Shown: positions 29,622-49,084 of the stretch, piece after piece
Numbering within the stretch: the stretch's first letter is position 1
Layout: each line of letters begins with the position of its first letter
Source of the DNA: Elusimicrobiota bacterium
GTDB taxonomy: Bacteria > Elusimicrobiota > Elusimicrobia > Elusimicrobiales > UBA9959
Reading direction: 5' to 3'
Length of the DNA: 51,655 bases
Assembly: GCA_037137395.1 (NCBI GenBank)
Contig: JBAXKK010000006.1
Coordinates: 1 to 51,655 of the forward strand
Notes under the pieces: generated by a model
The model's input: only the letters and a program-made list of their open reading frames with translations
What the model was told of the DNA's origin: nothing
Databases searched by the model: none
Program-made: the position numbers and the translations under genes

Positions 29622-29646
29622 GCAAAAGGAGCTGGCCTCCTTTTGC
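29622..29646. terminator. Bidirectional intrinsic terminator candidate
   Basis: GCAAAAGGAG-CTGGC-CTCCTTTTGC between convergent genes. Confidence 0.6.
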
Positions 29647-30380
29647 TATGGTTCTCTTGCCAGGGTGAAAACCGCTGTGCCGGCTGCCTCTGAGTTTTCA
29701 AGTGCCCGGGCAAGTTCATCGGTTGTGGCAAGCGTTGTGGCTACATCGTCCACTATTAGTATTCGCCGGCCCTTAACCAGTTCGGGTTTGACTACCTTAA
29801 AAGTTTCTTTGACGTTTTTTAGCCGCTCTTTTTTTGATAATCCTGTCTGCGACGGTGTATTCTTCACCTTTTCCACCGCCCCCTTAAGCACAAACAGATT
29901 CTTCTCACGCGCCAGAACTTCGGCCAGTAGTTCCGACTGGTTGAAGCCGCGTTCGCGCTCTTTCGCCCTGAAAAGCGGGACGGCTATGACGAAATTATAA
30001 TCCTTGAGTTCAGGACATCTGTCATAAGCACGAACCAGTTCCATGCCCAGAGATTCAGCCAGATCCTTCCTGCCGCGGTATTTGAAAGCGTGTATGAGCG
30101 ACCTAAGCTCGGGATTGAAGGCGAAAGCTGAGCGCACCAATTCCACCTTCAGCCGGGCGCTCTTCTGGCCGCGACAACTAAAGCAGTACTCGCCGCCGGA
30201 ATCCAGCGGCAGGCCGCATTTTATGCAGCTTGGCCCGGTTATCGGTTCAAGCGAGCCCAGGCAGGCCGGACAGAGAGGTCCTGTGTCCAGGTAATGCAGA
30301 TCCTCTTTGCAGTGCGCGCAGGTTTTAGGTAGTAAGACATGAAGCAGATATTTTCCGATACTTTTAATGTTTAGAGGCAT
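29646..30380 (-). CDS. comF: ComF family protein (double zinc ribbon + phosphoribosyltransferase domain)
   Basis: CxxC pairs, LIHAFKY, VPL, ERGFNQSE, LIVDDVATT. Confidence 0.92.
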   Translation of the reverse strand: MPLNIKSIGKYLLHVLLPKTCAHCKEDLHYLDTGPLCPACLGSLEPITGPSCIKCGLPLDSGGEYCFSCRGQKSARLKVELVRSAFAFNPELRSLIHAFKYRGRKDLAESLGMELVRAYDRCPELKDYNFVIAVPLFRAKERERGFNQSELLAEVLAREKNLFVLKGAVEKVKNTPSQTGLSKKERLKNVKETFKVVKPELVKGRRILIVDDVATTLATTDELARALENSEAAGTAVFTLAREP

Positions 30381-30472: not shown

Positions 30473-33400
30473 TTAAAATTGGAACGTCAGCGTGCTGCCG
30501 GCCTGATAGGAGATATATTCCTCCTGTTTGAGGAAGTTGTGCCAAAGCCGCTGGAGTCCGGCGTTGAAGGTAAGGCGCAGATTCTTGGCGGCTTCATAGT
30601 CGGCGCTGGAATTAAGCGAGAAAAGCCTGTTATTATCCGCCACGGTCACGGGAGATTTTTTGATGGCGTAGTTTAAAGTGGTCGTCCAGATAATGCGGTT
30701 AGTGAACACGAATACCTGTTTCATGAAGGGGAGCTTAAGGCCTTTGGGCAGCTGGAGGTCCGTTTTTATCAGCAGGCTTGGTGTAATCGTTTTCGTGTTC
30801 TGTGTCACGATGCCGAGGCCGCCTTTGGAAATATCATAAACATAATCCACTTTAGGCGTGAAACGGAATTTTTTATAGTCAAAGGTGCTTTGAAGCGTGG
30901 CGTCATAGTGCCGCGTGCTGGAAACTTTCTGGTTTAGCCGCAGGTCTTTGCGGTCGGTCAGCCTGGTGTTGTAGCTCATGGCTGTATCAAAATAATTCAA
31001 AACTTTTAAGCGCAGGTCCAGGCCGTAGGTGTCCGAGAGGTCCAGGCTGATCTTCTTGGTCTCATTGGTATTCTTTGAATACTTCAGATTGACGGTGGCG
31101 TTCTGCGCCCACTTGGCGGTGCGTGTCAGTATCTCAAGCTGGGACATGGAAAGGATCATGTCGGGGAAGGTCCTGTTAAGGCTGGTCGTCTTGGTGCCGG
31201 TGACCTCGGATTTCTGCAAAGAATTTGAGAAGCTATTGGTGACGCTGACAGTGTTAAGAGGGGTTGCCGCGCCTTTAAGAGCGAAACCTTCAAAAGGCTG
31301 CCAGCGCTGGGAGGAATTTATGGTGTCGCGCAGCGTTACAGAATTCCTCTGGGCTAGCTGGCTCTTCGGTTTAAGGGAGTCACGTATCCAGAGGCTTTGC
31401 TTGGCGTCCAGGCCTTTTTCCACGTTAGCCCAGGAATCTCCGTCCTGGATCTGGTAGTTGGAAGAGATGACCATTGAGCGAAGGAGGCGGTTCTTCGGCA
31501 TAAGATCGTTCACGTTTAGGGTAAGGTTGACGGCGCCCTGGGAGTTGCGGGTTATGGTCTTTATTTCACCCACGTTGAAAACGGCGCTTGTTGACAGCAC
31601 CGTGATCGTTGTGACATTCAGATTATTGTTTTCCATGGTGGTTATGGAATAGTTGAATCCGGGATTCAGCCAGGAGAAGAACATCAGGTTGGAATTGAAC
31701 TCCGCGGTCTGCTGCATGGATTTGGGATAACGCAGCATATTAGCCGTAGAGGCCGGGTTAACGCGCGTTTCCCTGACCTGAGACAGGGCGTAGCCGGGGT
31801 TAAAGGAAGAGCCGCGCCATGGGGTGAAGGCGAGCTTGGCGCCGTAAGTGTCGGTTCTCTCATCCGTGGCGAAAAGGCCTGAGGCGGCCGTTGTTGTGAG
31901 CTTGACTGCATTATAGGCCACTTTATTCCTGCCCAGTGAATAATTCAGGGTTATATTGTTGGGCAGGATGAAAACATTGAGAGGCACCGCGTAGGAGAGG
32001 TTGCCAGTGTATACATCCCTGTCGTCCCGGCGCGCCATGAGCGTGTAGTCGGTGCGATTTTTTGCGTAGTTGAAGCCCAGACGCGGTAGAGAGCCCATGG
32101 TAAAATTACCGGCCGCTGTGCCGTCGAAGCGCTTTACCTGGCCCTGCTGCAGGGAGTTGACCAGGTTGTTGGCGCCGGTGATAGCGGTGTTTGGTGTAGT
32201 GACCATCTGGCGCGCGGCCGTGAAGTTAAGCGGCAGAAAGGCCAGGCGCGTGATATTCAGGTAGCCGGTCTGCTGCTCATTGTCCTGGTTTGCGATGGCT
32301 GTCACCGGGGTCTGAAAATTTCTATCCATGTATCGGTGCTTTCCGCCGAAATTGACCCAGCCCGGGATTTCGAACGAACCTTCCACTTTTCGGGCGTTGC
32401 CCACCCGGGTCAGAGGTTTGGCGACATGTATCTCGTTCACATAGACCGTGCCGTTCTGAGTGGTTCCGCCTTTGGCGGCTACACCCAAGATGATCTGCGG
32501 CACCTGCTGCAGGCTCGGAGAGCCCTTTGAGGAGATGGTGACGGTATAGTTGGATCCGTTCACCCAGCGTTCCGGGATTCCGTCCTTATTCAGGTCCAAC
32601 TGGTCTATAGTGATGAGCCGCCAGCCGGTAAAGTCCAGCGGAACTTCGGCCCGGAAATTATTGTTTTCGTCGCCAAGCTGAAGGAAAAAGTCCGCGTTGA
32701 GATAAGTCGCGCTGCTGTAAAGAAGGAATTTAAATTTTTCGTGTTGCGAGATATCTATCGGCTGAGTGAATTTGCGGTAGACATAGGCGGTTGAGCTGGA
32801 CGTTATGTTCGTAAAGTTGACGGCCAGGGCCTGCTCAGAAAGATTCTGGGAATTGGTTTTACTTTTTTGGTCCGAGACCGAACCGTAAAGCTTGTTGAAT
32901 ACATCGGTTGCGTCGCCGCCGGCGGAGAAAATAGGGGGGTAGCCGGGGTTGTCTATGTTGTTTACAGCCTGGAGCTGCATAAATCCAGTGTTAGCTGTTG
33001 TGCTCTGGCTGACGGCCCAGGTATTGCCCACGGCGGCTATGCGGGCGAATTTTATAACTCCGGAGGTCGGCCCGCCGTTATATTTAAGTGAAATGCGGAC
33101 CTGTTTAACGGCATTCCAGCGGTAGGTGTCAGTGGAAGTTATGGGGATGGGCGTATAAAGCGTGTGCCAGCCAGTGAAATCTATATTATTCGTATCAACG
33201 CTGTCGTTATCAGTGTTGTCCTTGAATTTGGAGGAAGTGATATAGCCGAAGTCGCCTCCGGTGAAATCCTGGGGGTCCAGGCGGCCGTTTTTGTTGAGGT
33301 CCTCGGAGTCCATGCGGCCGTTGCCCGCGCCATAACGCTTTTCGCCCTTTCCGGCCGGTTTGTAAATCCAGCCGGTATCTTCGGCTGGCGCCAGCTGGTT

Positions 33401-35803
33401 GTCGCAGTTCGTGTCTTCGTTCTTTGGGGCGTTATTGAGAGTGAGGCCCTTTTCGCAGACGAAGTTTTGGCCCCCGGTGCCGTCCGCGTCTTCGTTTATC
33501 TGCCCAAGATGGATATTGAATAAAGGGCCGTTGACATTGTCGCCGTAGACAATCATCTCCAGCCCCGTTTTTTGCGAGAAGTCCAGGCCGGTGGGCGAGA
33601 GAGGGTAAGCTATGGAAATTTCTGAGGAAATGCTGAAATCGTAGTTTACGCTTAAAACCTGCTGGGTGCCATCCGAGGTTGATCCGGCGTTTATGTCCTG
33701 CTCTTTGACGTCCTGGCTGTTCCAGTTTAATGCGCGAGGGTCCGCCGGTCCGTAGAGTGAACCGAGCGGGTTGGCGGCTATCTGCCAAAAATTGGCGTCC
33801 AGGGAAGGTGAGTCGTCCTGCTTGATTCCCTCCATGTTATCTACAAGCGCGTTGTCGTTGAGGTTGGGGTTAAGCCGCGACTGCGCCACTTCGCCGCCAA
33901 GCGTGGTCCTTAAACCGAATATGTTAAGCGCTTTTAGCTGGGCGTCGCCCTCATAGACCAGCATGCTGTTTGTGAGATCGGTGACATTGGGTACGGTATT
34001 AGATTTTATGCCCCCCTGGTAGAGCAGTGTGCTGCCGACCGAGAAATGCTGGCTCAGATCGTAAGAAACGCGGCCGCCGACCATGGATTGGTTGCCTATG
34101 CCGCCGAAGGGGGAGACTTCGTAAACGATCTCGATCTTAGAGTCCTGCCTTATTCGGTCCGGGTAATAAAAGGTAATGAAGCCTGAGTCGTAGTCTATGA
34201 AATATTCTTCATTGCGGTTTATCTTGACTCCGTCCACGCGCACGTTTTCGGATTGCACTACGATACTGGGTTCCAGTATGAAGGTCTTGAATCTGTAGGA
34301 ATACTCCACGCGGAATATGCGTTTAGAGACCGGTGCGGCCGAATATATCTGCGCATCAGGCTGGATGCCGTCCGAGGTGAAGATCTGCTTCAAATTAAAT
34401 ATGCCCTGCTCAAAGTCCACTTCTATGGTGTCGGGATATTTCGGCATGTTGTTGGCAAGAGTGGATAAGACTTCGTTGCGGTTCAAGTCCTGCACCTTCA
34501 GCGTGAAATTTCCGCGCCCGTCGTCGCGCACTATATTTGTCTGTCCGATGGGGTAGTATGTTTTAAGCTCTCTATTCCATCCCGCTTCCTGGGAATTGGG
34601 CACGATCTGGATGTCGTTGGGCGTTTTGATGAGTTTGTAAAGATTGGTGCCGCCGATGGTGAGAGTTGTGGAGGATGTATTCTGGGAGAGCCGGGTCCCA
34701 TTGCCGTTCTCAAAGTCTATAATTACCACATCCTGCGGGTTCAGAGTTCGGTTGAAGGTTACGATACCCTTGATATAATCCATGACATAGTCTATGCCGG
34801 GGTTCATAATCTGGAAGCGCCCGGTGTAGGATGAGGAGGGCACGGCCAGGTCGTCCGCGCCCATGCCGAACACCGTTACGCCATCGACTATCGCCTGGCT
34901 TTGCTGGTCTATGTAAATGCGCTCCGACCCGGACTGTATGGGGAGACGGTTCAGATTTCCGAAAGTGACATCGTAGTATTTGCGCCGGAGATAATTGGTG
35001 TCAAGTATGTCCACGCTCTGGAACTGTGTGTTGCCGGTAAACTGTTTGGTTTTGGTCAGACCTTTGGTGCGCGAGCCGACGAAGGTGAATTTGAAACGGC
35101 TGGTCTTTAGGTCGGCGCGGATGCCGAAAAGCTGCTTGTTATATGAGACGAATTCGGTGGCGGGCAGCGACAGGTCTATGTCGCCGAAGGAAACATTCTG
35201 GACCACTTCGTTCGGATCGCCCTGGTAAACCACGGAGATATCCTGCTTGTCCAGCTTCGTGTCGTCGTAGTCTACGTTCACGGAGATCTTTTGTCCGACC
35301 TTGCCCTGCATGCGCACCTGCATCTGCTGCGTGATCTCAAAAAGGCTGAGCGCGCGCGGCCGGCTGACCGCGGTTTGGTCGTTCACGTAGCGCTTAGAGC
35401 TGTAATTGAGTGATATCACCTTGCGGCCGGTGACGGAAAGCGAGGTTCCCGAATCCTTAAACTCCAGCTCGGGCTGCGGGCCGAGCGGGGTTTCAGTTGA
35501 TATGGCGACTTCCTGGATGGGCTTAAGTTCAACGCGGTTGAAGCGCCCTGTTTCTATCTGTTCCCTGACGTCATTCCATGAATCGGAGGAGTAGCCGATT
35601 GGCATGATGGCGTCCAGATTTGGTCCCTCTCCAGCCGCGTCCTCTTCCTCACCCGCGCTGAGCAGCCGGTCGGGGGTAGCCCGGTCCAGAAGGAGAAAGC
35701 GCGCGGTGCCGGTTGAAGGGGTGGCGAGGTAGGACTCCTCTGACCAGGCTAAGCCGGGCAGGAGCGTCAGAGATATAAATAAAAGGCTTAAGCTTTTTTT
35801 CAC
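30473..35803 (-). CDS. Giant outer-membrane beta-barrel protein, SprA/Sov-like (type IX secretion translocon homologue)
   Basis: Signal peptide; QQMQVRMQGKVGQKISVNVDYDD...YQGDPNEVVQNVSFGDIDLSLP...LFGI resembles the SprA N-terminal domain; EDLNKNGRLD, GTVYVNEIHV; amphipathic C-terminal strands ending in Phe. Confidence 0.75.
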   Translation of the reverse strand: MKKSLSLLFISLTLLPGLAWSEESYLATPSTGTARFLLLDRATPDRLLSAGEEEDAAGEGPNLDAIMPIGYSSDSWNDVREQIETGRFNRVELKPIQEVAISTETPLGPQPELEFKDSGTSLSVTGRKVISLNYSSKRYVNDQTAVSRPRALSLFEITQQMQVRMQGKVGQKISVNVDYDDTKLDKQDISVVYQGDPNEVVQNVSFGDIDLSLPATEFVSYNKQLFGIRADLKTSRFKFTFVGSRTKGLTKTKQFTGNTQFQSVDILDTNYLRRKYYDVTFGNLNRLPIQSGSERIYIDQQSQAIVDGVTVFGMGADDLAVPSSSYTGRFQIMNPGIDYVMDYIKGIVTFNRTLNPQDVVIIDFENGNGTRLSQNTSSTTLTIGGTNLYKLIKTPNDIQIVPNSQEAGWNRELKTYYPIGQTNIVRDDGRGNFTLKVQDLNRNEVLSTLANNMPKYPDTIEVDFEQGIFNLKQIFTSDGIQPDAQIYSAAPVSKRIFRVEYSYRFKTFILEPSIVVQSENVRVDGVKINRNEEYFIDYDSGFITFYYPDRIRQDSKIEIVYEVSPFGGIGNQSMVGGRVSYDLSQHFSVGSTLLYQGGIKSNTVPNVTDLTNSMLVYEGDAQLKALNIFGLRTTLGGEVAQSRLNPNLNDNALVDNMEGIKQDDSPSLDANFWQIAANPLGSLYGPADPRALNWNSQDVKEQDINAGSTSDGTQQVLSVNYDFSISSEISIAYPLSPTGLDFSQKTGLEMIVYGDNVNGPLFNIHLGQINEDADGTGGQNFVCEKGLTLNNAPKNEDTNCDNQLAPAEDTGWIYKPAGKGEKRYGAGNGRMDSEDLNKNGRLDPQDFTGGDFGYITSSKFKDNTDNDSVDTNNIDFTGWHTLYTPIPITSTDTYRWNAVKQVRISLKYNGGPTSGVIKFARIAAVGNTWAVSQSTTANTGFMQLQAVNNIDNPGYPPIFSAGGDATDVFNKLYGSVSDQKSKTNSQNLSEQALAVNFTNITSSSTAYVYRKFTQPIDISQHEKFKFLLYSSATYLNADFFLQLGDENNNFRAEVPLDFTGWRLITIDQLDLNKDGIPERWVNGSNYTVTISSKGSPSLQQVPQIILGVAAKGGTTQNGTVYVNEIHVAKPLTRVGNARKVEGSFEIPGWVNFGGKHRYMDRNFQTPVTAIANQDNEQQTGYLNITRLAFLPLNFTAARQMVTTPNTAITGANNLVNSLQQGQVKRFDGTAAGNFTMGSLPRLGFNYAKNRTDYTLMARRDDRDVYTGNLSYAVPLNVFILPNNITLNYSLGRNKVAYNAVKLTTTAASGLFATDERTDTYGAKLAFTPWRGSSFNPGYALSQVRETRVNPASTANMLRYPKSMQQTAEFNSNLMFFSWLNPGFNYSITTMENNNLNVTTITVLSTSAVFNVGEIKTITRNSQGAVNLTLNVNDLMPKNRLLRSMVISSNYQIQDGDSWANVEKGLDAKQSLWIRDSLKPKSQLAQRNSVTLRDTINSSQRWQPFEGFALKGAATPLNTVSVTNSFSNSLQKSEVTGTKTTSLNRTFPDMILSMSQLEILTRTAKWAQNATVNLKYSKNTNETKKISLDLSDTYGLDLRLKVLNYFDTAMSYNTRLTDRKDLRLNQKVSSTRHYDATLQSTFDYKKFRFTPKVDYVYDISKGGLGIVTQNTKTITPSLLIKTDLQLPKGLKLPFMKQVFVFTNRIIWTTTLNYAIKKSPVTVADNNRLFSLNSSADYEAAKNLRLTFNAGLQRLWHNFLKQEEYISYQAGSTLTFQF

Positions 35804-36071: not shown

Positions 36072-37184
36072 ATGCGCATTCCTATATCCCAAAAATACAT
36101 CCTCCAGGTCTTTTCGCGTTTCCTGGCCCTTTCGCTTTTCGTTTTTGCTTCCATTTTCGTGATGGTCAACTTCGTGCAGATAGTCATCCAGGGGGCTTTG
36201 AGCGGGTTTTCCTTCTATTTCCTTTTCAAGAGCATCATCTATCTCCTGCCCAATATACTCTCAATGTCGCTGCCGCTCTCCTTCCTGATGGCCGTGCTGC
36301 TGAGCCTGGGCCAGCTTTCCCAGGAAGGCGAAATCGTGGCGCTCAGGGCCGGAGGATTCTCTTTCACCGAGATCATGGCGTCTATTTTCTGGGCCTCTGT
36401 AGCCGCTTCAGTAATATTGCTGGCGGTAAATAACTGGTTCGGGCCGAAAACGCTGAAACGCTCCACCGATTACACGCTCTCAATGATAAACCGGGTGACC
36501 AGAGTGGAACTGAGGCCCCGCACTTTCCAGAAGGTTTCCGACTGGGTGATATATTCGGATGAAGTGGACGCGCTGTCAAGCGGGCTTAAGGGTGTCAAGC
36601 TTATCCGGCGCGTGAATGTGAATAGCGATCCCGCTTTCGTGACCAAGATTAACGCGAAGGAGGGAAATTACTCGGTTCTGCGCGAGCGCGGCATAGCCAT
36701 CGAACTCCGGGACGGCCAGTTCAGCCAGACGGATTATAAAGACGATAATAAGGTTATTTACGGGGATTTCTCATCGTACCGGACGATCATACCGTTCTTT
36801 TCTGGCAGCGCGGATTCGCGCAAGCTGAGTCCGCGTGAGATCTCCTCCTCGGGGCTTCTGCGTAAAATATCGAAGGGGGCGCTTGACGCCGAAACCAGGG
36901 CCAAATACCGCATAGAGATAGCCTCGCGCTTTGCAATGGCGCTTACGCCGCTGGTGTTTTTCCTCATCGGCGCGCCGCTGGGAGTGGTGCTGGAGAAAAA
37001 AGGCCGCTCGGCCGGCTTTGCTGTAAGCCTGGTGATCATCTTTTTTTATTACGGCTTAAGTATAACTTCCATGGTTTTGACCAGGAAATACGCCTGGCTG
37101 TTCCCCTGGGCGATGTTCGCGCCTGCCGCGGCGGGCGCAGCGCTGGGGCTTTGGATGTGGAAAAAAAGGCTGTATGCGCGCTAA
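36072..37184 (+). CDS. lptF: LPS export permease LptF (LptF/LptG family)
   Basis: LPLSFLMAVLLSLGQLSQEGEIVALRAGG, LIGAPLG; 3+3 TM layout; first of pair. Confidence 0.85.
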   Translation: MRIPISQKYILQVFSRFLALSLFVFASIFVMVNFVQIVIQGALSGFSFYFLFKSIIYLLPNILSMSLPLSFLMAVLLSLGQLSQEGEIVALRAGGFSFTEIMASIFWASVAASVILLAVNNWFGPKTLKRSTDYTLSMINRVTRVELRPRTFQKVSDWVIYSDEVDALSSGLKGVKLIRRVNVNSDPAFVTKINAKEGNYSVLRERGIAIELRDGQFSQTDYKDDNKVIYGDFSSYRTIIPFFSGSADSRKLSPREISSSGLLRKISKGALDAETRAKYRIEIASRFAMALTPLVFFLIGAPLGVVLEKKGRSAGFAVSLVIIFFYYGLSITSMVLTRKYAWLFPWAMFAPAAAGAALGLWMWKKRLYAR

Positions 37185-37292
37185 TAGCGGAGTGTAGTAA
37201 GGATTAAGTGATAAGAATTAAGCATTATGTTAAAAGACGCTTATTTTTGGCACTTCTTATCACTTAACACTTACTTCTTAATTCTTAAATTG
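37185..37292. repeat. Inverted heptamer array (TAAGNRW / WYNCTTA family)
   Basis: TAAGGAT TAAGTGA TAAGAAT TAAGCAT ... TTCTTAT CACTTAA CACTTAC TTCTTAA TTCTTAA. Confidence 0.88.
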
Positions 37293-37294
37293 CT

Positions 37295-38386
37295 ATGAAC
37301 AAAGTTTTCTTCAAATATATAGCCGGAAGTTTCTGGGGCCCATTTTTCTTCGGCCTCGGAGTTTTTGTGTCGCTGCTTCTTTTTGGCAGTCTTTTCGACA
37401 AGATAAGTTTTTTCATGAAGAGTTCTTCCGGCTTTGATACTTTTCTAAAGTACCTCATCTACCAGTTGCCCTACTTTATCGTAAAAATGATGCCTATCGC
37501 CACCCTCCTGGCGGTTCTGTTCGCTCTGGGGGGGATGATTTCAAGGGGCGAGTGGAAGGCGGGGATGGCCGGCGGCTGGCGGCCGTTTGAAATGGTTCTG
37601 CCACTGCTGGCCTGTTCGGCAGCCGCGGCCATGCTGCAGCTGGGGGTGCAAGAGACGGTGGCTCCGCCATTTTTTATGAGGTCAGAATACATCTTTGAAG
37701 GGAAGATGCGGGGCCGAGACGATTGGAAGCGCCTTGTGCGCCGGGAGGTGTCGTTCTCGGCCGGGCCGGATGTCTTCGTCACCGCCCAGATTTTTGACGG
37801 CGGCAGGGAAACGATGGAACGTGTGCTGGTAAATATTTATTCCGGCGGCAGGATATTAAAGGAGATAAATGCTCTGAAGGCCGTGTGGGACAGGACCGCG
37901 GGTGTATGGGTTTTTGAGAACGGGGTGCTGATACAATATGGGCCTGACGACGGGGCAAGGCCGGTGACCTCATCTTTTACGAGTTATTCCGGCCCTCTTA
38001 ACAGCCCGCCTGAGACGCTGATACTGGAGCGGCTGGTGCCGGACGGCGTCAGCATACTTGATATATCCGACCGGATAAGGCGGCTTGAAGCCATAGGCGC
38101 GCCCGTCGTGGCCGAAAAGGTCCAGCTTTATTCAAAGCTGGCTGGTCCGCTGGCGAATATCGTGTTGGCTGTCACCGGGCTTACGCTGGTGTTGATAGTG
38201 CGGATGAACCGCGTGCTTAGTTTTGGTATCGCGCTGGCCACAGGCTTTTTTTTCTGGGTGTTTATGACGATGGGGCAATACGCGGGGGAGGCGGAAATGG
38301 TGCCGCCGGTGGTGGCGGGCTTCGGCCCCGCCCTTGTTTTCCTTACAATATCCTTTTTAGGACTCCGTAAAGCCAGGATATTTTAG
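37295..38386 (+). CDS. lptG: LPS export permease LptG (LptF/LptG family)
   Basis: MPIATLLAVLFALG, GEWKAGMAGG, AVWD...WVFENG jellyroll; second of pair. Confidence 0.82.
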   Translation: MNKVFFKYIAGSFWGPFFFGLGVFVSLLLFGSLFDKISFFMKSSSGFDTFLKYLIYQLPYFIVKMMPIATLLAVLFALGGMISRGEWKAGMAGGWRPFEMVLPLLACSAAAAMLQLGVQETVAPPFFMRSEYIFEGKMRGRDDWKRLVRREVSFSAGPDVFVTAQIFDGGRETMERVLVNIYSGGRILKEINALKAVWDRTAGVWVFENGVLIQYGPDDGARPVTSSFTSYSGPLNSPPETLILERLVPDGVSILDISDRIRRLEAIGAPVVAEKVQLYSKLAGPLANIVLAVTGLTLVLIVRMNRVLSFGIALATGFFFWVFMTMGQYAGEAEMVPPVVAGFGPALVFLTISFLGLRKARIF

Positions 38387-41391: not shown

Positions 41392-41420
41392 ATTTTACAC
41401 TGAGCCCGGTGAAATGTCAA
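41392..41420 (-). promoter_or_regulatory. Sigma70 promoter (leftward)
   Basis: Minus strand TTGACA-N17-TAAAAT; in-frame ATG 7 nt downstream at 41384. Confidence 0.75.
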
Positions 41421-41471
41421 GGGCCTTTTCCCACCAAAAATTCCGGCGCGCGGCCGGAACCCGCGCGGAGA

Positions 41472-41500
41472 TTGATAAGACGCGCTTATAAATATAAAAT
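41472..41500 (+). promoter_or_regulatory. Sigma70 promoter (rightward) for the radical SAM operon
   Basis: TTGATA-N17-TAAAAT; ATG 7 nt downstream at 41508. Confidence 0.7.
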
Positions 41501-41507
41501 GAGAGTC

Positions 41508-42968
41508 ATGGAATACGCTAGGAAGATCGTTTTTGTGAATCCGCCGCTGTCTATCCAGGACCGTTACGGGGTTAAGTCCCAGAGCGGGGGGCAGACCCCG
41601 CCTTTGGGCTTGCTGTGTCTGGCTACGATGACGCGCGCGCATGGTTTTGAAACCACTATCCTTGACGCCGCCGCGCTAAAACTGGGGTATGCGGAGTGCG
41701 TAAGTTTTATATTGGATAATGATTTCCATTATGTCGGTATTACCGCCGTTACCATTTCAATAGCGCATGCAGCTGAACTGGCGGCTCGACTGAAAAAGGC
41801 CGATCCCGGAATCACTATTATTATAGGCGGTCCTCATCTCACCGCTTTACCTTCGGAAACAATGGCAATGTTCCCGCAGTTCGATATAGGCGTCATCGGC
41901 GAAGCCGACTACGCGATCGTGGAATTACTATCGGCATTGGAAGATAAAAAAGATTTGGTTACCGTCGGGGGACTGATCCTCAGAGGCGAGAGTGGATTAA
42001 TGAAAACGCAATCTCGGCCGCGCATTGATGATCTGGACAGTCTGCCTATGCCCGCCTGGGATTTGCTGCCGGATTTGGCGCGTCATTATTGCCCTCCGGT
42101 GCACACTCTGAAACGAATACCAGCGGCTTTGCTGGTAACTTCGCGCGGTTGCCCGGGAGAATGCGTTTTTTGTGACCGCAGCGTTTTCGGTAATGTGCTG
42201 CGGGCTTATAGCGCCGAATACACTTTTAAGATTATAAAGGAACTTTATCATAAGCACGGCATTCGCGAAATACAGCTGCGCGACGATAATTTTACGGCCT
42301 ATCGCAAACGGATGCTGGAATTATGCGCTATGCTCAAGGCCGAGAAGCTGGATATGGTGTGGACCTGCGCCTGCCGGGTGGACATGGTCAACCCTGATAT
42401 ACTCAGGATAATGAAAGAAGCGGGCTGTTGGCAGATCTGGTACGGAATTGAGAGCGGTTCGGACGTGATATTAAAACAGATAAAAAAACATACCACCACG
42501 CGCCAGATCCGGGAAGCCGTGCGGATGACCCGCGACGCCGGGATCAGTCCCTGCGGGTTCTTTATCATCGGCAGCCCCGGAGAAACCAAGGGAACCCTGG
42601 AAGAGACAGTGCAATTCGCTCTGGACCTCCCGCTTGACGAAGCCCATTTTTCCTTTATGACGCCTTTCCCCGGCTCGCAATTGTACGCGCGGGCGCTGGA
42701 ATACGGGTCATTCGACAATAATTGGAGCAAGCTCAACGGCTGGCTGCCGGTATTCCTGCCGCACGGCCTGACAGCCCGCGACCTGGAGATGTATTCAAAG
42801 CGGGCCTTCCGTAAATTTTACTTCCGGCCGCGTATTATTTTTTCGTATATAAGAAAAATACGCAGTTTCAGGCATGCCGCGATATACTTCCGCGGGTTTT
42901 TGGCGCTAGTGGAATGGCTTGTGAAAAGCAGGGCGAATAAAGTCAGGCTCCGGCAGCCGAAAGAGTAA
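41508..42968 (+). CDS. B12-binding domain radical SAM protein 1
   Basis: PPLGLLCLA, GGPH, GEAD, SRGCPGECVFC, DDNFT, GIESGS, FIIGSPGET. Confidence 0.92.
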   Translation: MEYARKIVFVNPPLSIQDRYGVKSQSGGQTPPLGLLCLATMTRAHGFETTILDAAALKLGYAECVSFILDNDFHYVGITAVTISIAHAAELAARLKKADPGITIIIGGPHLTALPSETMAMFPQFDIGVIGEADYAIVELLSALEDKKDLVTVGGLILRGESGLMKTQSRPRIDDLDSLPMPAWDLLPDLARHYCPPVHTLKRIPAALLVTSRGCPGECVFCDRSVFGNVLRAYSAEYTFKIIKELYHKHGIREIQLRDDNFTAYRKRMLELCAMLKAEKLDMVWTCACRVDMVNPDILRIMKEAGCWQIWYGIESGSDVILKQIKKHTTTRQIREAVRMTRDAGISPCGFFIIGSPGETKGTLEETVQFALDLPLDEAHFSFMTPFPGSQLYARALEYGSFDNNWSKLNGWLPVFLPHGLTARDLEMYSKRAFRKFYFRPRIIFSYIRKIRSFRHAAIYFRGFLALVEWLVKSRANKVRLRQPKE

Positions 42969-42976
42969 GCAATCTG

Positions 42977-44398
42977 ATGGCTAAACTTCTTTTTTTGCAA
43001 AACCTTGAATACGAGTTCCTGGGCCCGATGTATATCTCATCGATGGTCAAGGCGCGCCATGAATGTACGCTCGCGGTCGGGGCCGCTGCAGAGGATTTTG
43101 CCGCCGTCATGGAAACGTTCAAGCCGGATGTGGTAGCGTTCTCTATAATGACTGGTTCCCACCGCTGGGCGCTGAATATCGCGAGAATTTTGAAAGAAAA
43201 GTATAACGTGCTCACGCTTTTTGGCGGCGCGCATCCCACCTTTTTCCCCGAGTTCATAGAGGAAGAGGGGGTTGACATAATCTGCCGGGGGGAAGGGGAG
43301 GCCGCGACTCTGGACCTCCTGGACGCGCTGGATGCCGGCAAAGATTTCAGCGGCATCGGAAATCTGTATGTGAAACAGAAAGAATTGATAAGCAGGAACC
43401 CCGTACGGCCGCTAGATAAAGAACTGGACGCGTATCCGTTCCCGGACCGGGAACTCTATAAGGCGCTGGGGCTCGGAACGGACAGGAGCGTAAGGAATAT
43501 TATAACTTCGCGCGGCTGTATGTTTCACTGCTCTTTTTGTTTTGAGGACAGCATCAGGGAACTATATAAAGACAAAGGACAGCATGTGCGCGTGCGGAGC
43601 ATTGAGAAAGTAATTGAAGAACTGCGCGAGCTGAAACTAAAACACAACGTTAAAACCGTTTATTTTTGCGACGATGTGTTCGGAATAAACCGGAAATGGC
43701 TGTATGAATTCCTTGATGTGTATAAAAAGGAGATAGGTCTCGACTTCCTCTGTCTGGTGCGCGCGGATATCATGTGCTCGGACGAAAATTACGCCGTAAA
43801 ATTGAAGGAAGCGGGCTGCAAGAGCGTTTTTTTCGGCATAGAATCCGGGTCTGAGCGCCTGAGAAACTCCGTCCTTAACAAGAATCTTAAAGATAAGGAT
43901 ATTTACGAAGCCGCCCGAATGCTGCATAAAGCGGGGTTGCCGTTTAGGACCTATAATATCGTAGGCCTTCCGGATGAAACGCTTGAAGACGCCTTTAATA
44001 CTGTGAAAATGAACATCGCAATCAAAGCCGATTACCCGTGGTGCTCCATCTTTTCGCCCTATCCCCGCACGGCGTTAACTCTTTACGCACAGCAGCAAGG
44101 CTATCTTGCCAAGGATTTTAGTCCGGACGCCATTTCCGGCTCTTTTTTTATTGATTCACAACTGACGATTCCAGATATACGCCGGATAGAAAATTTGCAT
44201 AAATTCTTCCAGACTGCGGTGCTGGCCCCATGGACGCTGCCTTTGGTGAGGATACTTATCAAATTTCCGCCTAATCTCATGTTCCGGTTATGGTTTGGTA
44301 TAATATATTTTTACGTGTTCCTCAAAAGCGAAAAAAGAAGTTTTTTCAAGACGCTCGGCTTCGCTCTTAAGAGTTATAAACACGTGTTAAAGAAATAG
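42977..44398 (+). CDS. B12-binding domain radical SAM protein 2
   Basis: GGAHPT, GEGE, SRGCMFHCSFC, DDVF, GIESGS, IVGLPDET. Confidence 0.92.
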   Translation: MAKLLFLQNLEYEFLGPMYISSMVKARHECTLAVGAAAEDFAAVMETFKPDVVAFSIMTGSHRWALNIARILKEKYNVLTLFGGAHPTFFPEFIEEEGVDIICRGEGEAATLDLLDALDAGKDFSGIGNLYVKQKELISRNPVRPLDKELDAYPFPDRELYKALGLGTDRSVRNIITSRGCMFHCSFCFEDSIRELYKDKGQHVRVRSIEKVIEELRELKLKHNVKTVYFCDDVFGINRKWLYEFLDVYKKEIGLDFLCLVRADIMCSDENYAVKLKEAGCKSVFFGIESGSERLRNSVLNKNLKDKDIYEAARMLHKAGLPFRTYNIVGLPDETLEDAFNTVKMNIAIKADYPWCSIFSPYPRTALTLYAQQQGYLAKDFSPDAISGSFFIDSQLTIPDIRRIENLHKFFQTAVLAPWTLPLVRILIKFPPNLMFRLWFGIIYFYVFLKSEKRSFFKTLGFALKSYKHVLKK

Positions 44399-44440
44399 GG
44401 TCGACAGCCCGTGACGCGGCGCCGCCTGAAGACGAAATAA

Positions 44441-45613
44441 ATGAAAATAGATTTCCTTAAAATCCTGGATAAATACATCGGATTTGCGGTTTGTCTCGTG
44501 CTTACTTTCCTGAGCAAGCTGTTCGGCTCCGGTGAAACTCCGGTCAGGAAAGAAAATATCAAAAAGACGCTGGCGATGAAATTCCTGGGTTTGGGGAGCA
44601 TACTTCTTCTGTCCCCTACCATAAAAGAATTCAGGAAAACTTATCCCTCCTCGAAACTGGTATTCTTAACACTCAACCGGAATAAAGAAATATGCGAATC
44701 CCTGAAGCTTTTTGACGAGGTTATAACCGTAAATATCGATAAAGGCTGGCTGGTCTTTTCGCGGACTTTCCTCAGGGTCCTCTTATATTTATGGCGCGAG
44801 CGGTTCGATCTGGTGCTGGATTTCGAGTTCTTTACCCGGTTCTCATCTATCGTTACTTTTCTTACATTCGCTAAAGTGAAAATTGGCTACCATGCCTGGG
44901 AGACATGGCGGGGCGATATTCACAGCGTCAATGTTCCATTCAACCGGTATTGGCACATCATGGATAATTTTTACAACCTCGGTATCCATATCGGTCTCGA
45001 TAAGCAGGTCCAATTAAAGATTGTGAAACCCTTTGTGGAGGCTGCGGACAGGGATGTGGTGGCTAAGCTCCTGAAAGAAGCGGGTGTGAAGGATGGTTAC
45101 ATCGCGGTGCATGTTAATGCCAGCGACCTGAGCGTGGAGCGCAGGTGGCCCGCCGGCAATTTTATCCGCTTAGTAGGTAAGATTCTTGAGAAACATGATC
45201 TAAATGTGGTGTTTATAGGCTCCAAGGCGGATCAGCCTGTAGTGGGGGAGGTATGCCGCCGGATAGCTCATCCAAGAGCGGTGGACCTTTCCGGAAAGAT
45301 ATCCATAACGCAACTTGCCGCCCTGTTCGAAAACTCTAAACTCGTGATATCGAATGACGGCGGTCCGCTGCACCTGGCGGTGGCTATGGAAGCTCCCACA
45401 GTCTCTTTTTTCGGTCCTGAAACACCCATGATGTACGGCCCCCGGGGATCCGGCCATGCCGTCTTCTTCAAAAATATCGAATGCAGCCCGTGCATCAATG
45501 TGCACGACCGCAAATCCGTGCGCTGCTACTGGCCCCGCCCTAAATGCATGGAAGCTATCACGGTGGAGGAAGTGTTCGATACTATAGAGAAGAAGCTGGC
45601 GATATCGCAATGA
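44441..45613 (+). CDS. Glycosyltransferase family 9 (heptosyltransferase-like)
   Basis: LGLGSILL, RRWP, DLSGK, ISNDGGPLHLAVA, FFGPE, C-terminal CSPC...C...CM. Confidence 0.9.
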   Translation: MKIDFLKILDKYIGFAVCLVLTFLSKLFGSGETPVRKENIKKTLAMKFLGLGSILLLSPTIKEFRKTYPSSKLVFLTLNRNKEICESLKLFDEVITVNIDKGWLVFSRTFLRVLLYLWRERFDLVLDFEFFTRFSSIVTFLTFAKVKIGYHAWETWRGDIHSVNVPFNRYWHIMDNFYNLGIHIGLDKQVQLKIVKPFVEAADRDVVAKLLKEAGVKDGYIAVHVNASDLSVERRWPAGNFIRLVGKILEKHDLNVVFIGSKADQPVVGEVCRRIAHPRAVDLSGKISITQLAALFENSKLVISNDGGPLHLAVAMEAPTVSFFGPETPMMYGPRGSGHAVFFKNIECSPCINVHDRKSVRCYWPRPKCMEAITVEEVFDTIEKKLAISQ

Positions 45614-47007
45614 AAAAAGTGCTTTTGCTCAATCCGCCGGGAAAACGCCTTTATATCCGCGACTATTTCTGCAGCAAGGTTTCGCAGGCCGATTACCTCA
45701 CACAACCCGTGGACCTTCTGATGCTGAGCGGCATCCTGTCGCAGAGTTTTGAAGTGCATTTTATTGACGCCATTGCCGGGAAGCTTCCCATTGAGTCGGT
45801 TCTTAGGGAAATAAGGCGCATAGATCCGTTTGCGGTTATAAGTCTTTTCGGAGCGGTAAGCCTTGCCGAAGATATGGATTTCGCGAGACGGGTCAGGCAG
45901 GCCGGCGGCGACGTCAAAATAGTTGGAATCGGTGATGCCTTCAGGGCCGGCGGAGAAAGATATCTCGGGGAGGGTTCCCCTCTGGACGCGCTTCTTTTGG
46001 ATTTTACCGGGCCGGATATAGTGAACTATCTCAATGGCGATTATGGTGCGGTAAGCGACATGATCATCCGTGATGGTGCTAATATCCTCCCGGCTAAAAT
46101 TGCGCGGAAATCTAATCTCTTCAGTATTCCTCTTCCGTTGCATCATCTTTTTACCGGATATAATTACCGTCACCCGTTTATCAAAAGTCAAAAATTTGCC
46201 ACGGTGCTGGCTGATTACGGGTGCCCCTATCCCTGCAGTTTTTGTGTTATGAGCACGCTTGGATTTAAGGTAAGACCGGTCGATCAGGTGATAACTGAAT
46301 TAAAACTTGTAAAATCACTGGGCATAAATGAAGTCCTCTTTCACACCCAGACCTTCGGCGCGAACCCGGAGTGGGCGAAAGAACTTTGCCGTAAAATAGT
46401 CGCGGAGAATCTGCTGATCGGGTGGATATGTTTTTCCAGAGTGGATGTGGCGGACCCTGAGTTGCTTAACGTGATGAAGAAGGCCGGCTGCCATACGATA
46501 ATTTTTGGCGTTGAATCCGGCTCCGACTTGATACTTGAAAAATACCGGAAAGGATATACGAGGGAACAGATAGTTTTGGCTGTGGACTATTGTGATAAGA
46601 TCGGTATCGAAACTGTGGGAACTTTTATCATCGGTCTGCCGGAAGAGACTCATGAAACCATGGCGGCTACGCTGCGGCTCCTGAAGACCATCAAGCTTGA
46701 TTATGCGTCGTTCAATGTCGCCGTTCCCCGGATCGGGACCGTTATGAGAGAAGATGCCGTATCTCTGGGAATGGTGGATAGAAGTTTTGACACTATGGAT
46801 CAGTCCGGCAGCGATATCGCTATGCCAAGCCGGAATCTGACAAAAGAGGAGATAGCCGGGTATCGGCGGCAGGCTGTTTTCACTTTTTATTTTAACGCGC
46901 GGTATATTCTCCGGCGGTTGATGAAGATAAGATCCTTGTACGATTTTACGCGCCAGTTGAATCAGGCTGTGGCGCTGGCGATAAATACCTGGTTCGGGAA
47001 ACGCTGA
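45610..47007 (+). CDS. Radical SAM protein 3 (divergent B12-binding-like N-terminus)
   Basis: LLNPP, YGCPYPCSFC, GVESGS, FIIGLPEET; ATGA overlap with the GT9 stop. Confidence 0.88.
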   Translation: MKKVLLLNPPGKRLYIRDYFCSKVSQADYLTQPVDLLMLSGILSQSFEVHFIDAIAGKLPIESVLREIRRIDPFAVISLFGAVSLAEDMDFARRVRQAGGDVKIVGIGDAFRAGGERYLGEGSPLDALLLDFTGPDIVNYLNGDYGAVSDMIIRDGANILPAKIARKSNLFSIPLPLHHLFTGYNYRHPFIKSQKFATVLADYGCPYPCSFCVMSTLGFKVRPVDQVITELKLVKSLGINEVLFHTQTFGANPEWAKELCRKIVAENLLIGWICFSRVDVADPELLNVMKKAGCHTIIFGVESGSDLILEKYRKGYTREQIVLAVDYCDKIGIETVGTFIIGLPEETHETMAATLRLLKTIKLDYASFNVAVPRIGTVMREDAVSLGMVDRSFDTMDQSGSDIAMPSRNLTKEEIAGYRRQAVFTFYFNARYILRRLMKIRSLYDFTRQLNQAVALAINTWFGKR

Positions 47008-47012
47008 CAAAT

Positions 47013-48227
47013 ATGAATAAAAAAATATGTCTCGCGGTTTTCCTCGCGGCGTTCGTCCTGCGGCTGGGCCTGCTATTGGGCTATAAAGGCATAGCGGAAA
47101 CTTATGAAAAATTCGACGCGCAGGCTTATGAGGCCGTCGCCGTAAACCTTACGCAGGGCAACGGTTTCATTGAGGGTCCTGGGAAGCCTACCGACGGCCG
47201 TCCGCCGGTATATCCGTTGTTTCTCGCGGCGGTGTATTCCGTTACCGACCACAGCCAGTTCACTTTCAGGCTGCTTCAGTGCCTGGTAGACTCCGGGAGC
47301 GCCGTCCTTCTTATGATGATAGCGGGGTTAATATTCACCCCCGCCATAGCCATGCTTTCCGGCGCGCTGGCGGCGGTTTATCCGCCGTTCATCCTTTACA
47401 GCAATATGAAAATGACGGAGTGCCTGTTCATCTTCTTTTTCCTCTGGGAATGCTACTACCTGACCAGGGCGTTTAAGGATCGTGATAATAAAAGTTTCGC
47501 TTATTCTGGAATATTCCATGGGGTTTCCGTGCTGGTGCGCGCCCCGACATTAATGTTCCCGGTGTTCCTGCTGCCGATAATTCTATTTGCCGGATTTCGC
47601 AAACAGCTTTTCAAGGGCTTCATGCTGTATATGGTTATAAGCAGCGCGATTATTTCGGTGTGGACCGTGCGCAATTATTACGCGCTTAATGATTTCCTGG
47701 CGGTGAACACCGGCAGCGGGTGGCTGCTTTGGTATGCTATTCAGGATGACGCCTGGGATGGTGATAAAATAGTGGAACTCAGTCCTTTGCGGGAGTACCC
47801 GGAGCTGAAAGATCTGCCACGCTCTAAAATGGAAAGCATCGTCGGCCGGAAGGTCGTTATATACGCTTTAACGCATCCGGCTGCTTATTCACGCAAGATG
47901 GTGAGGAATTTATGGCGTCTGTGGACGCTGCCTATAGGAAAAGTCATGCTTTCCAAGATTTCAAAAACCTGTGCCGTGCTGTACCAGATGGCGCATTATC
48001 TGCTGCTGGCGACGGCCCTTTGCGGTTTATTTTATATTTCCAGGAGTAACTTTATTTCGTCACTCCCGTCGCTGTTATATTTGTTGTATGCTTCGCTCAT
48101 GCATAGCGTGATAATCGGGACTCCCAGATACCGTCTGCCTTATGACCATCTGCTTTTGATGCTTTGCGCCGGCGGACTGGTGTATTATTATAACGCCGTT
48201 AAAACGAAGACTATAAACGCTTTATGA
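47013..48227 (+). CDS. GT-C fold membrane glycosyltransferase (ArnT/PMT-like)
   Basis: D..Y..A.NL..G.G loop, RPPVYPLFLA, MTE, WTVRNY, PRYRLP; many TMs. Confidence 0.8.
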   Translation: MNKKICLAVFLAAFVLRLGLLLGYKGIAETYEKFDAQAYEAVAVNLTQGNGFIEGPGKPTDGRPPVYPLFLAAVYSVTDHSQFTFRLLQCLVDSGSAVLLMMIAGLIFTPAIAMLSGALAAVYPPFILYSNMKMTECLFIFFFLWECYYLTRAFKDRDNKSFAYSGIFHGVSVLVRAPTLMFPVFLLPIILFAGFRKQLFKGFMLYMVISSAIISVWTVRNYYALNDFLAVNTGSGWLLWYAIQDDAWDGDKIVELSPLREYPELKDLPRSKMESIVGRKVVIYALTHPAAYSRKMVRNLWRLWTLPIGKVMLSKISKTCAVLYQMAHYLLLATALCGLFYISRSNFISSLPSLLYLLYASLMHSVIIGTPRYRLPYDHLLLMLCAGGLVYYYNAVKTKTINAL

Positions 48228-49084
48228 CTTGTACAGTTTGCGGATCCGATACCTGTAGCACAGCCTTGATCACCGGTCAAATGGCCATTTACCGGTGTTT
48301 AAAATGCGGCGTTAGTTTTGTTCACCCGCAGCTGACCGACGGGGAGCTGCATGAGTTATACGGGGAAGCTTATTACAAGTCCTGGGGATTGGCCGGCCGG
48401 GCCGGAAATAAAGCGGTGCAGCGGATGAAGACGGACACCTTCGATCTCCGCCTGGATCTTATCGCGGAGTATAAATGTTCGGGAAATATCCTGGATGTGG
48501 GCTGCGCGACCGGGTATTTTCTTGAAGCTGCTGCGAGGAGAGGATTTCAGGTCTACGGCGTTGAAATTTCTGATTATTCCTGCGCCATCGCAAAAAGAAA
48601 TTTTGGTGACGACAGGGTTTATCAAGGCGTGCTTGAAAACTGTCCTTTCCCGGAAAAACATTTTGATGTGATAGCCATGTCCGATCTTCTCGAGCATGTT
48701 CGAGATCCCATTAAAGCCCTGCGGGCTGCGCGCAGGTTTTTAAAAAATGACGGCATAATTATGATAATGACCCCGGACACGGATGCTCTTACCCGCAGAC
48801 TAATGAGGGGGAAATGGACCCATTACAAAGCCGAACATTTTTTTTACTTTAACAGACGCTCCATTAGCTATCTCGCCGACCTGGCCGGTCTTGCGGCTGT
48901 TTATTTTGAGGCCGCGAAAAAATCCATGAATCTTGAGTATGTCTATACGCAGTTTAAAGCGTATCCGCATTGGCTGCTGTCGCCTGTTTCCGGTCTTCTT
49001 CACCATATCCTTCCCCGCGCGCTTCGCGCGAGAAACTTCCATATAACCATGGGCGAGATGGTCGTTATCCTGAAGAATAAATAA
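48224..49084 (+). CDS. Class I SAM-dependent methyltransferase with N-terminal CxxC pairs
   Basis: CTVC...CLKC, ILDVGCATG, GVEIS, LEHVRDP. Confidence 0.9.
   Translation: MTCTVCGSDTCSTALITGQMAIYRCLKCGVSFVHPQLTDGELHELYGEAYYKSWGLAGRAGNKAVQRMKTDTFDLRLDLIAEYKCSGNILDVGCATGYFLEAAARRGFQVYGVEISDYSCAIAKRNFGDDRVYQGVLENCPFPEKHFDVIAMSDLLEHVRDPIKALRAARRFLKNDGIIMIMTPDTDALTRRLMRGKWTHYKAEHFFYFNRRSISYLADLAGLAAVYFEAAKKSMNLEYVYTQFKAYPHWLLSPVSGLLHHILPRALRARNFHITMGEMVVILKNK

Follow-up and report, generated by a model that had tools for sequence, protein, structure and literature searches.

A probable SprA-like outer-membrane translocon of the Elusimicrobiota and its proposed PorV-family carriers and tailed cargo

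The window, by which we mean the whole stretch of 51,655 nucleotides that was analysed, carries a gene on the reverse strand that begins with a GTG codon and encodes a 1776-aa protein ending in Phe (Table 1). An earlier note on this DNA had proposed that the product is a SprA-like translocon with a signal peptide; indeed, the N-terminus, read by eye, has a basic start and a hydrophobic core with probable cleavage after residue 21. Residues 22–117 are poorly conserved (mean 30%, compared to 46–66% in the other parts), and the SprA counterpart of this tail is described as binding SkpA (PMC10994853). The best conserved block (66%) comprises residues 118–258, the counterpart of about residues 134–267 of SprA. 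From strand parity in the fold models, we infer that insert 1 is an extracellular cap. Insert 2 holds both copies of the repeated DFTGW motif (residues 875 and 1057), D-x-N-x-x-G at 835 and 1070, DTNCDN at 797, and the only two cysteines of the protein (783 and 800); thus, the motifs listed in the earlier note are all present. The first of the D-x-N-x-x-G/DTNCDN set, putatively Ca-binding-like, aligns with SprA from residue 1158 in a 24-sequence profile, and the CBM11-like sandwich predicted in insert 2 has a VIA Z of 15.4 over 152 residues aligned to 6r31 (rmsd 2.5).

Table 1. Coordinates in the window of the SprA-like gene, the predicted parts of its product and the neighbouring genes
Feature	Coordinates	Strand	Basis or position
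SprA-like outer-membrane translocon, 1776 aa	30473..35803	(-)	family profile and modelled fold
Probable Sec signal peptide, residues 1-21	35741..35803	(-)	sequence read by eye
Putative N-terminal periplasmic tail, residues 22-117	35453..35740	(-)	poorly conserved
Predicted barrel strands 1-7, residues 118-258	35030..35452	(-)	profile, fold model, conservation
Insert 1, predicted beta-rich, residues 259-570	34094..35029	(-)	fold model and profile match
Predicted barrel strands 8-11, residues 571-650	33854..34093	(-)	fold models
Insert 2, residues 651-1130, predicted CBM11-like beta-sandwich	32414..33853	(-)	VIA, profile, motif positions
Predicted barrel strands 12-38 (27 long strands), residues 1131-1776, terminal Phe	30476..32413	(-)	fold model
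comF	29646..30380	(-)	downstream, co-oriented neighbour of the SprA-like gene
lptF-lptG	36072..38386	(+)	upstream, divergent neighbours of the SprA-like gene

The protein has 298 homologues at E≤1e-5, with identities of 49–100% among the 120 matches listed, and the terminal Phe that had been pointed out is found in 109 of 110 aligned homologues, which argues that the likeness is not due to chance. The order of the neighbouring genes is also conserved: comF is found beside the SprA-like gene in 37 and lptFG in 49 of 81 loci, counts that are lower bounds because many loci end early and shadow ORFs were sometimes kept, and both neighbours are present in genomes G030, G064 and G021. This arrangement recurs even in another class of the phylum, so the SprA-like gene is not contamination. 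We regard the neighbourhood as conserved synteny, from which we draw no functional link to the gene. No type IX secretion system (T9SS) gene was found among the 35 ORFs scanned in the window, as the earlier note had remarked, and no recurrent T9SS partner lies beside the gene in 80 related loci; the partners lie elsewhere in the genome. Farther along the window, positions 41409–49084 hold a GT9 and a PMT-type glycosyltransferase gene, a methyltransferase gene and three genes for radical SAM proteins, two of which have B12-binding domains, a cluster that probably serves envelope glycolipid modification.

The assignment to SprA was examined with profiles and with models of the fold. TIGR04189 (NCBIfam) matches the ORF with E 1.4e-32, best over residues 113–276, but the 112 bits obtained do not reach its curated cut-off of 200 bits, while PF14349 (SprA_N) does not match this copy and the Pfam search as a whole returned nothing. 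Orthologues score similarly (101 and 114 bits), and two of six more distant homologues exceed the cut-off. A single-sequence search of PDB sequences gave 0 matches; ESM Atlas features match at 0.98–0.99 to clusters in which 20–86% of members carry PF14349. The 24-sequence family profile matches F. johnsoniae SprA (6h3i_A) with E 2.9e-34 in collinear segments (136–250/150–267, 335–420/438–543, 502–581/701–780 and 814–1186/1158–1597), with a further weak C-terminal segment (1705–1727/2349–2371).

The chain was folded as two overlapping halves from 44-row alignments, residues 101–1300 (pLDDT 82.0, pTM 0.55) and 577–1776 (pLDDT 86.9, pTM 0.50). Four SprA structures rank first in Foldseek for both halves, with best E values of 6.3e-55 and 1.2e-40, respectively, compared to 6e-9 and 1.6e-5 for the next unrelated structures. 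VIA places model residues 118–1298 on SprA 134–1745 (896 residues, rmsd 19.7, Z 22.0) and 577–1776 on SprA 760–2401 (1021 residues, rmsd 9.3, Z 16.7); for the C-terminal half, other barrels equal SprA if Z is taken by itself (17.8 for a FhuA model), but their alignments span only about 414 residues. The profile match and the two models indicate that the 1776-aa protein is, as the earlier note had supposed, a true SprA homologue, with a predicted SprA fold along its whole mature length.

The architecture is collinear with that of SprA of Flavobacterium johnsoniae (6H3I, 6H3J, 8GL6, 8GL8) and Sov of Porphyromonas gingivalis: N-terminal strands, an insert, four strands, a second insert, and a long C-terminal barrel that ends in Phe. 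The gene also resembles sprA in being mostly single copy and in being found with PorV-family barrels and type A tails. It differs from SprA in length (1776 versus 2403 aa, SprA being the longer, as had been stated), in a structural identity of 12–18%, in a score under the TIGR04189 cut-off, in its short and variable N-terminal tail, in a host outside the FCB group, and in that no GldL, GldM, GldN, PorG or PorU was detected. According to the models, the protein is shorter than SprA because of smaller inserts and loops, not fewer strands. A distant SprA homologue, P0244 (2486 aa), has an N-terminal small barrel that matches the PorG model (E 2e-11, below cut-off), and is a possible PorG-SprA fusion.

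The number of barrel strands may even exceed that of SprA. Counted over the half-models, there are 7 + 4 + 27 = 38 long strands whose up-down parity is consistent, and at least 90% of the 110 homologues (1553–1950 aa) have residues in each of these strands. SprA is described as having 36 strands (PMC12365241), a published number that is here compared to our own count over two half-models. The model extends beyond the end of SprA in three of the four structural alignments (with 6h3j, model residue 1164 of 1200 falls on SprA 2403); the 6h3i alignment reaches the end, and the weak C-terminal profile segment sets the last strands of both proteins in register. The early end of SprA and the register of the last strands both fit one extra hairpin. 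A strand alternation score did not separate the barrel strands from controls, and so lends no support to the count. On balance we lean slightly towards a barrel of 38 strands, two more than SprA; if the count holds, this barrel would be larger than the 36-stranded one of SprA. Both half-models are unclosed.

The host does not look like a member of the Bacteroidota, a point already raised together with the suggestion of Elusimicrobiota. All 20 of the taxon-named proteins among 120 listed homologues come from Elusimicrobiota, as do 72 of the best 80 genome loci; the other eight are named only ‘bacterium’, and the closest locus has 95% identity. We therefore take the host to be a member of the Elusimicrobiota, as judged from sequence. 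A SprA profile match and a predicted SprA-like fold were found in a host that is not an FCB-group organism with a canonical T9SS. The genome that carries the SprA-like gene, G000 (2.70 Mb, 98.9% complete, 7.7% contaminated), has one such gene.

To place the gene in the phylum, we used a sample of 121 Elusimicrobiota genomes, which include kin and are not independent. The pore profile matches 116 of the 121, with ORFs mostly of 1700–1900 aa and mostly in single copy; five genomes have no match, and in G021 all that remains of the gene between comF and lptF is a stretch of about 750 bp with a frameshift. PorV-family carriers are found in 117 genomes and TIGR04183 tails in 87; the four genomes without carriers (G021, G087, G113 and G115) belong to one genus, and none of the four has a usable pore. 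Of the 115 genomes whose pore is usable, 112 have tailed cargo, compared to one of the six others. The exceptions are three genomes with a pore and no tail found (G023, G002 and G111) and two that keep 2 carriers with no pore found (G040 and G012). The genus g8 might have been considered tail-less, with TIGR04183 in 0 of 22 genomes, but this was ruled out: an orthologue of the multi-FlgD-Ig protein at G000 C3:41138-44299, a core cargo, is present in all 22, and the copies read in G068 and G064 have a divergent tail followed by the orthologous carrier. The SprA-like gene is thus, as far as sequence matches tell, a near-universal single-copy gene of the phylum and not a local oddity.

The 1.1-Mb genome G021 has eroded pore, PorV-like carrier, Tad, Tol-Pal, LptE and lipid A genes (remnant locus C1:944000-963999), and keeps lptF/lptG ORFs and two LptD-like matches. 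Because lipid A, LptE, Tol-Pal and Tad genes were lost or broken there too, the joint loss of pore and carriers is not specific. Similarly, a subtractive comparison was too unspecific, with 194 of 505 G030 ORFs common with G000 being lost or broken in G021. A secreted protein of about 245 aa that ends in Phe and has no Pfam or NCBIfam match (G000 C67:9706-10485; L184:8459-9193) was considered as a co-lost partner and ruled out, since it occurs in 117 of 121 genomes, including four without the pore; this core protein, as yet uncharacterised, may be a small barrel of the outer membrane.

The genome scan for PorV and sorting-domain proteins that had been suggested gave matches to both. NF033709 detects 17 PorV-family genes in G000, 13 of them over the cut-off; one carrier matches F. 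johnsoniae PorV (6h3i_F) with E 1.2e-8, and another has no PDB match. TIGR04183 detects 12 tailed proteins (11 over the cut-off) and our own tail profile 18, although 15 of the 18 are found by construction, the profile having been built from 15 tails. Against the PDB, the tail profile matches PorZ (5m11, 6.6e-10), PorU (6za2, 6.3e-8) and the translocon-bound tail 8glj_D (7.8e-4); flagellar FlgD matches nearly as well (2.5e-6) and ranks after PorZ and PorU. The cargo proteins include products of 4825 (open), 3100, 3096, 1991, 1909 and 1644 aa, with Kelch/Fn3, TIG and carboxypeptidase-regulatory repeats and a subtilase among their domains. Fusions with TPR or caspase-like domains are seen in some carriers; at C27:4224-7295 and C112:1480-4536 lie PorV-family barrels of about 1020 aa, of which the C27 copy has a C-terminal caspase-like (C14) domain.

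The carrier genes are paired with the cargo genes. Fourteen of the 17 carriers come after a tailed gene on the same strand, 13 of them directly (gaps of 9–465 bp) and one with an ORF in between, and one further carrier sits at a contig start. Over these 14 pairs, similarity between tails is correlated with similarity between carriers (rho 0.45, p 0.0006; rho 0.38, p 0.024 without two recent duplicates), a result that joint duplication of neighbouring genes would likewise give. In a modelled complex, the tail of C3:66623 and the carrier C3:65632 score 0.94, compared to 0.01 for the best of 3 controls; runs agree in at least 99% of contacts, partner pLDDT is at least 90, and the calibration mark is reached by 116 of 157 solved pairs and 2 of 215 mismatched pairs. 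PorV-tail complexes have already been solved, so this model shows likeness, not binding.

Both the carrier family and the tail motifs resemble the PorV shuttle and the type A CTD cargo (NF033709, TIGR04183). However, one PorV is described as common to all type A tails in Bacteroidota (PMC12618676), whereas G000 has 17 paralogues, 14 of them behind a cargo gene. In its order, a cargo gene and then its own carrier gene, the arrangement is like that of type B CTD cargo with PorP/SprF shuttles; for type B shuttles, PorZ-PorQ and PorU-PorV, a carrier that is not recycled is described as serving as the anchor (PMC12618676, PMC12365241). It differs from these in that the paired genes encode type-A/FlgD-like tails and PorV-family barrels. 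Neither a gliding track nor a sortase was found with them.

A search for GldKLMN had also been proposed in the earlier note. GldL, GldM, GldN and PorG were found in 0 of 121 genomes, even at E 1e-4 to 1e-6, and GldM and GldL gave no match in G000 at E 0.1; these searches used Bacteroidota-trained models with no T9SS control genome, and the result is thus ‘not found’, not ‘absent’. The GldK model gave three partial matches of the FGE-sulfatase fold in G000, in unrelated contexts. There is no C25 domain (PorU sortase) in G000, while C25 sortase-like domains in 2 of 121 genomes show that this search can detect them. Skp-like genes were found in four of five genomes, and one TPR protein gave a generic PorW match (82 of 250 bits).

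Taken together, the evidence favours, with a probability of about 0.75, the reading that the protein serves as outer-membrane translocon in a type-9-like export system of divergent form, in which each cargo travels on its own carrier, which stays as the anchor. As judged from sequences and models, the system works like the SprA-PorV-CTD core of T9SS. By analogy with F. johnsoniae, the cargo would cross the inner membrane by Sec and then fold, its C-terminal Ig-like tail would enter the barrel from the periplasm and bind a PorV-like carrier docked at a lateral gate, and carrier and cargo would leave sideways. Because the genes are paired and a sortase is lacking, the tail would stay uncut and the cargo would be held on the surface by its own carrier, in the manner of PorZ with PorQ, PorU with PorV and type B cargo with SprF-like shuttles. 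We do not class the system as a canonical T9SS because the TIGR04189 score is under the cut-off, the sortase test is negative and a motor was not found; the notion of a divergent or minimal T9SS-like core does fit, in the sense of a system reduced in energy chain and sortase, but expanded in carriers.

As to how release is powered, our preferred guess, to which we give a little less than an even chance, is a passive one-way ratchet, in which the arrival of an empty carrier would push out the loaded one. Release would need no recycling of carriers because every cargo would come with a carrier of its own that is used once, as has been proposed for type B shuttles (PMC12618676). In F. johnsoniae, the motor is described as needed to release carrier and cargo from the pore, cargo being trapped on the translocon without it (PMC10994853), which argues against passive release; the motor is thought to act probably via PorG linked to GldK (PMC12635249). 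As a tentative second choice, carrier and cargo would be pulled out by a general proton motor (5:2) like TolQR/ExbBD or MotAB; TolQR and ExbBD-TonB sets are present in G000. An ‘orphan’ ExbBD-TonB set was rejected as such, given that the one TonB-dependent receptor in G000 could be its client, and is still a possible motor. This set lies at C58:6345-13777, where a 1100-aa TPR protein is encoded directly upstream of exbB-exbD-exbD-tonB and a secreted 324-aa protein; it was not found in the 77% of G030 that was read. It is unlikely, in our opinion, that an unrecognisably diverged Gld chain pulls the carrier and cargo out.

A rival reading takes the system for an ordinary T9SS, with a motor, a ring and PorG that have diverged beyond the reach of the family models. 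Some carriers and the pore itself (112 of 200 bits) already score below cut-off, so a diverged motor could be missed in searches that had no positive control, and Skp-like genes and GldK-related FGE-sulfatase-fold proteins do exist. However, the matches of the three GldK-like genes to the model are partial and their surroundings unrelated, GldL, GldM, GldN and PorG are unmatched throughout the 121 genomes, with GldL and GldM unmatched in G000 even at E 0.1, and a comparison of G000, G030 and G021 (77% of G030; 20 candidates scanned) gave no unknown inner-membrane pair. We consider an ordinary T9SS improbable. The pore might instead be powered by, or be part of, a FliF-FliG/MotAB module or a Tad pilus ATPase, as two gene arrangements would suggest. 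At C40 and C55 of G000, two copies of a row comprise a giant cargo, a PorV-TPR fusion, a histidine kinase and a FliF_C-FliG fusion, and a separate motA-unknown-motB cluster lies in C31. Likewise, the core pair, the single cargo-carrier pair that small genomes of the order keep (the multi-FlgD-Ig protein and a PorV-like barrel), heads a Tad/Flp operon, flp-flp-tadE-cpaB-secretin-cpaE/F-tadB-tadC, in G000 (C3:26000-44299), G064 and G068. Distribution rules out both as universal motors, since neither tracks the pore: in a single-protein query, FliF-FliG occurs in 43 of 121 genomes and in none of the 37 and 34 genomes of f2 and f11, the two largest families of the sample, which both keep the pore; Tad RcpC, found in 101 of 121 genomes, is missing from 19 genomes that have the pore, and five of the six that lack the pore do have RcpC; and G060, G102, G110 and G067, with pore and many tails, have neither. 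We consider this reading highly improbable; a lineage-specific role may exist.

A role of the barrel in LPS insertion or DNA uptake might be suggested by the neighbours lptFG and comF, by their synteny across two classes and by the loss of the pore in G021 along with lipid A genes. Against this, there is a separate LptD-like gene, of 715 aa in G030 with weak OstA/LptD_N matches and with a homologue at G000 C124:1417-3492 (E 2e-32), and the two LptD-like matches persist in G021 while its pore is eroded, which rules out the barrel as an LptD replacement. Furthermore, the fold is far closer to SprA than to LptD (E 1e-40 versus 3e-5), and the presence of cargo tracks the pore. This role seems to us barely credible, and the reading of a type-9-like translocon with one carrier per cargo is retained.

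T9SS and its tails are described in a review as restricted to Bacteroidota (PMC10202324), and abstracts describe the system as restricted to the FCB superphylum. We found no published report of SprA or T9SS in Elusimicrobiota; subscription papers and supplements could hold a distribution survey. An export route thus seems to run, powered otherwise, in a phylum where reviews do not place T9SS. With pore, carriers and tails and no recognisable motor, the phylum makes the claim that ejection needs a motor testable with three components, and the set bears on the origin of T9SS. One can speculate that motor-independent type 9 export with one carrier per cargo, via a 38-stranded single-chain barrel that by its strand count would be wider than SprA, is the ancestral core, and that the Gld/Por motor, the ring and the sortase came later, in Bacteroidota, a scenario that we consider rather unlikely. 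The system also predicts the surface proteome, giant adhesins and proteases, of a poorly known phylum.

Some smaller features of the cargo genes may be mentioned. The secretin in the Tad/Flp operon headed by the core pair is very short (240 aa), and the cargo of that pair may be a pilus-associated adhesin. At C52:18547 to the contig end in G000, the QTDR tetrapeptide repeat with which a partial cargo ORF starts could be an error of the assembly. At C16:29519-33557, among lipid A genes, a 178-aa protein consisting almost entirely of a signal peptide and a type A tail is followed by a 1146-aa fibre-like gene without a tail; tail ORFs of 150–220 aa are found in other genomes too, and the 178-aa protein is possibly an adaptor in trans.
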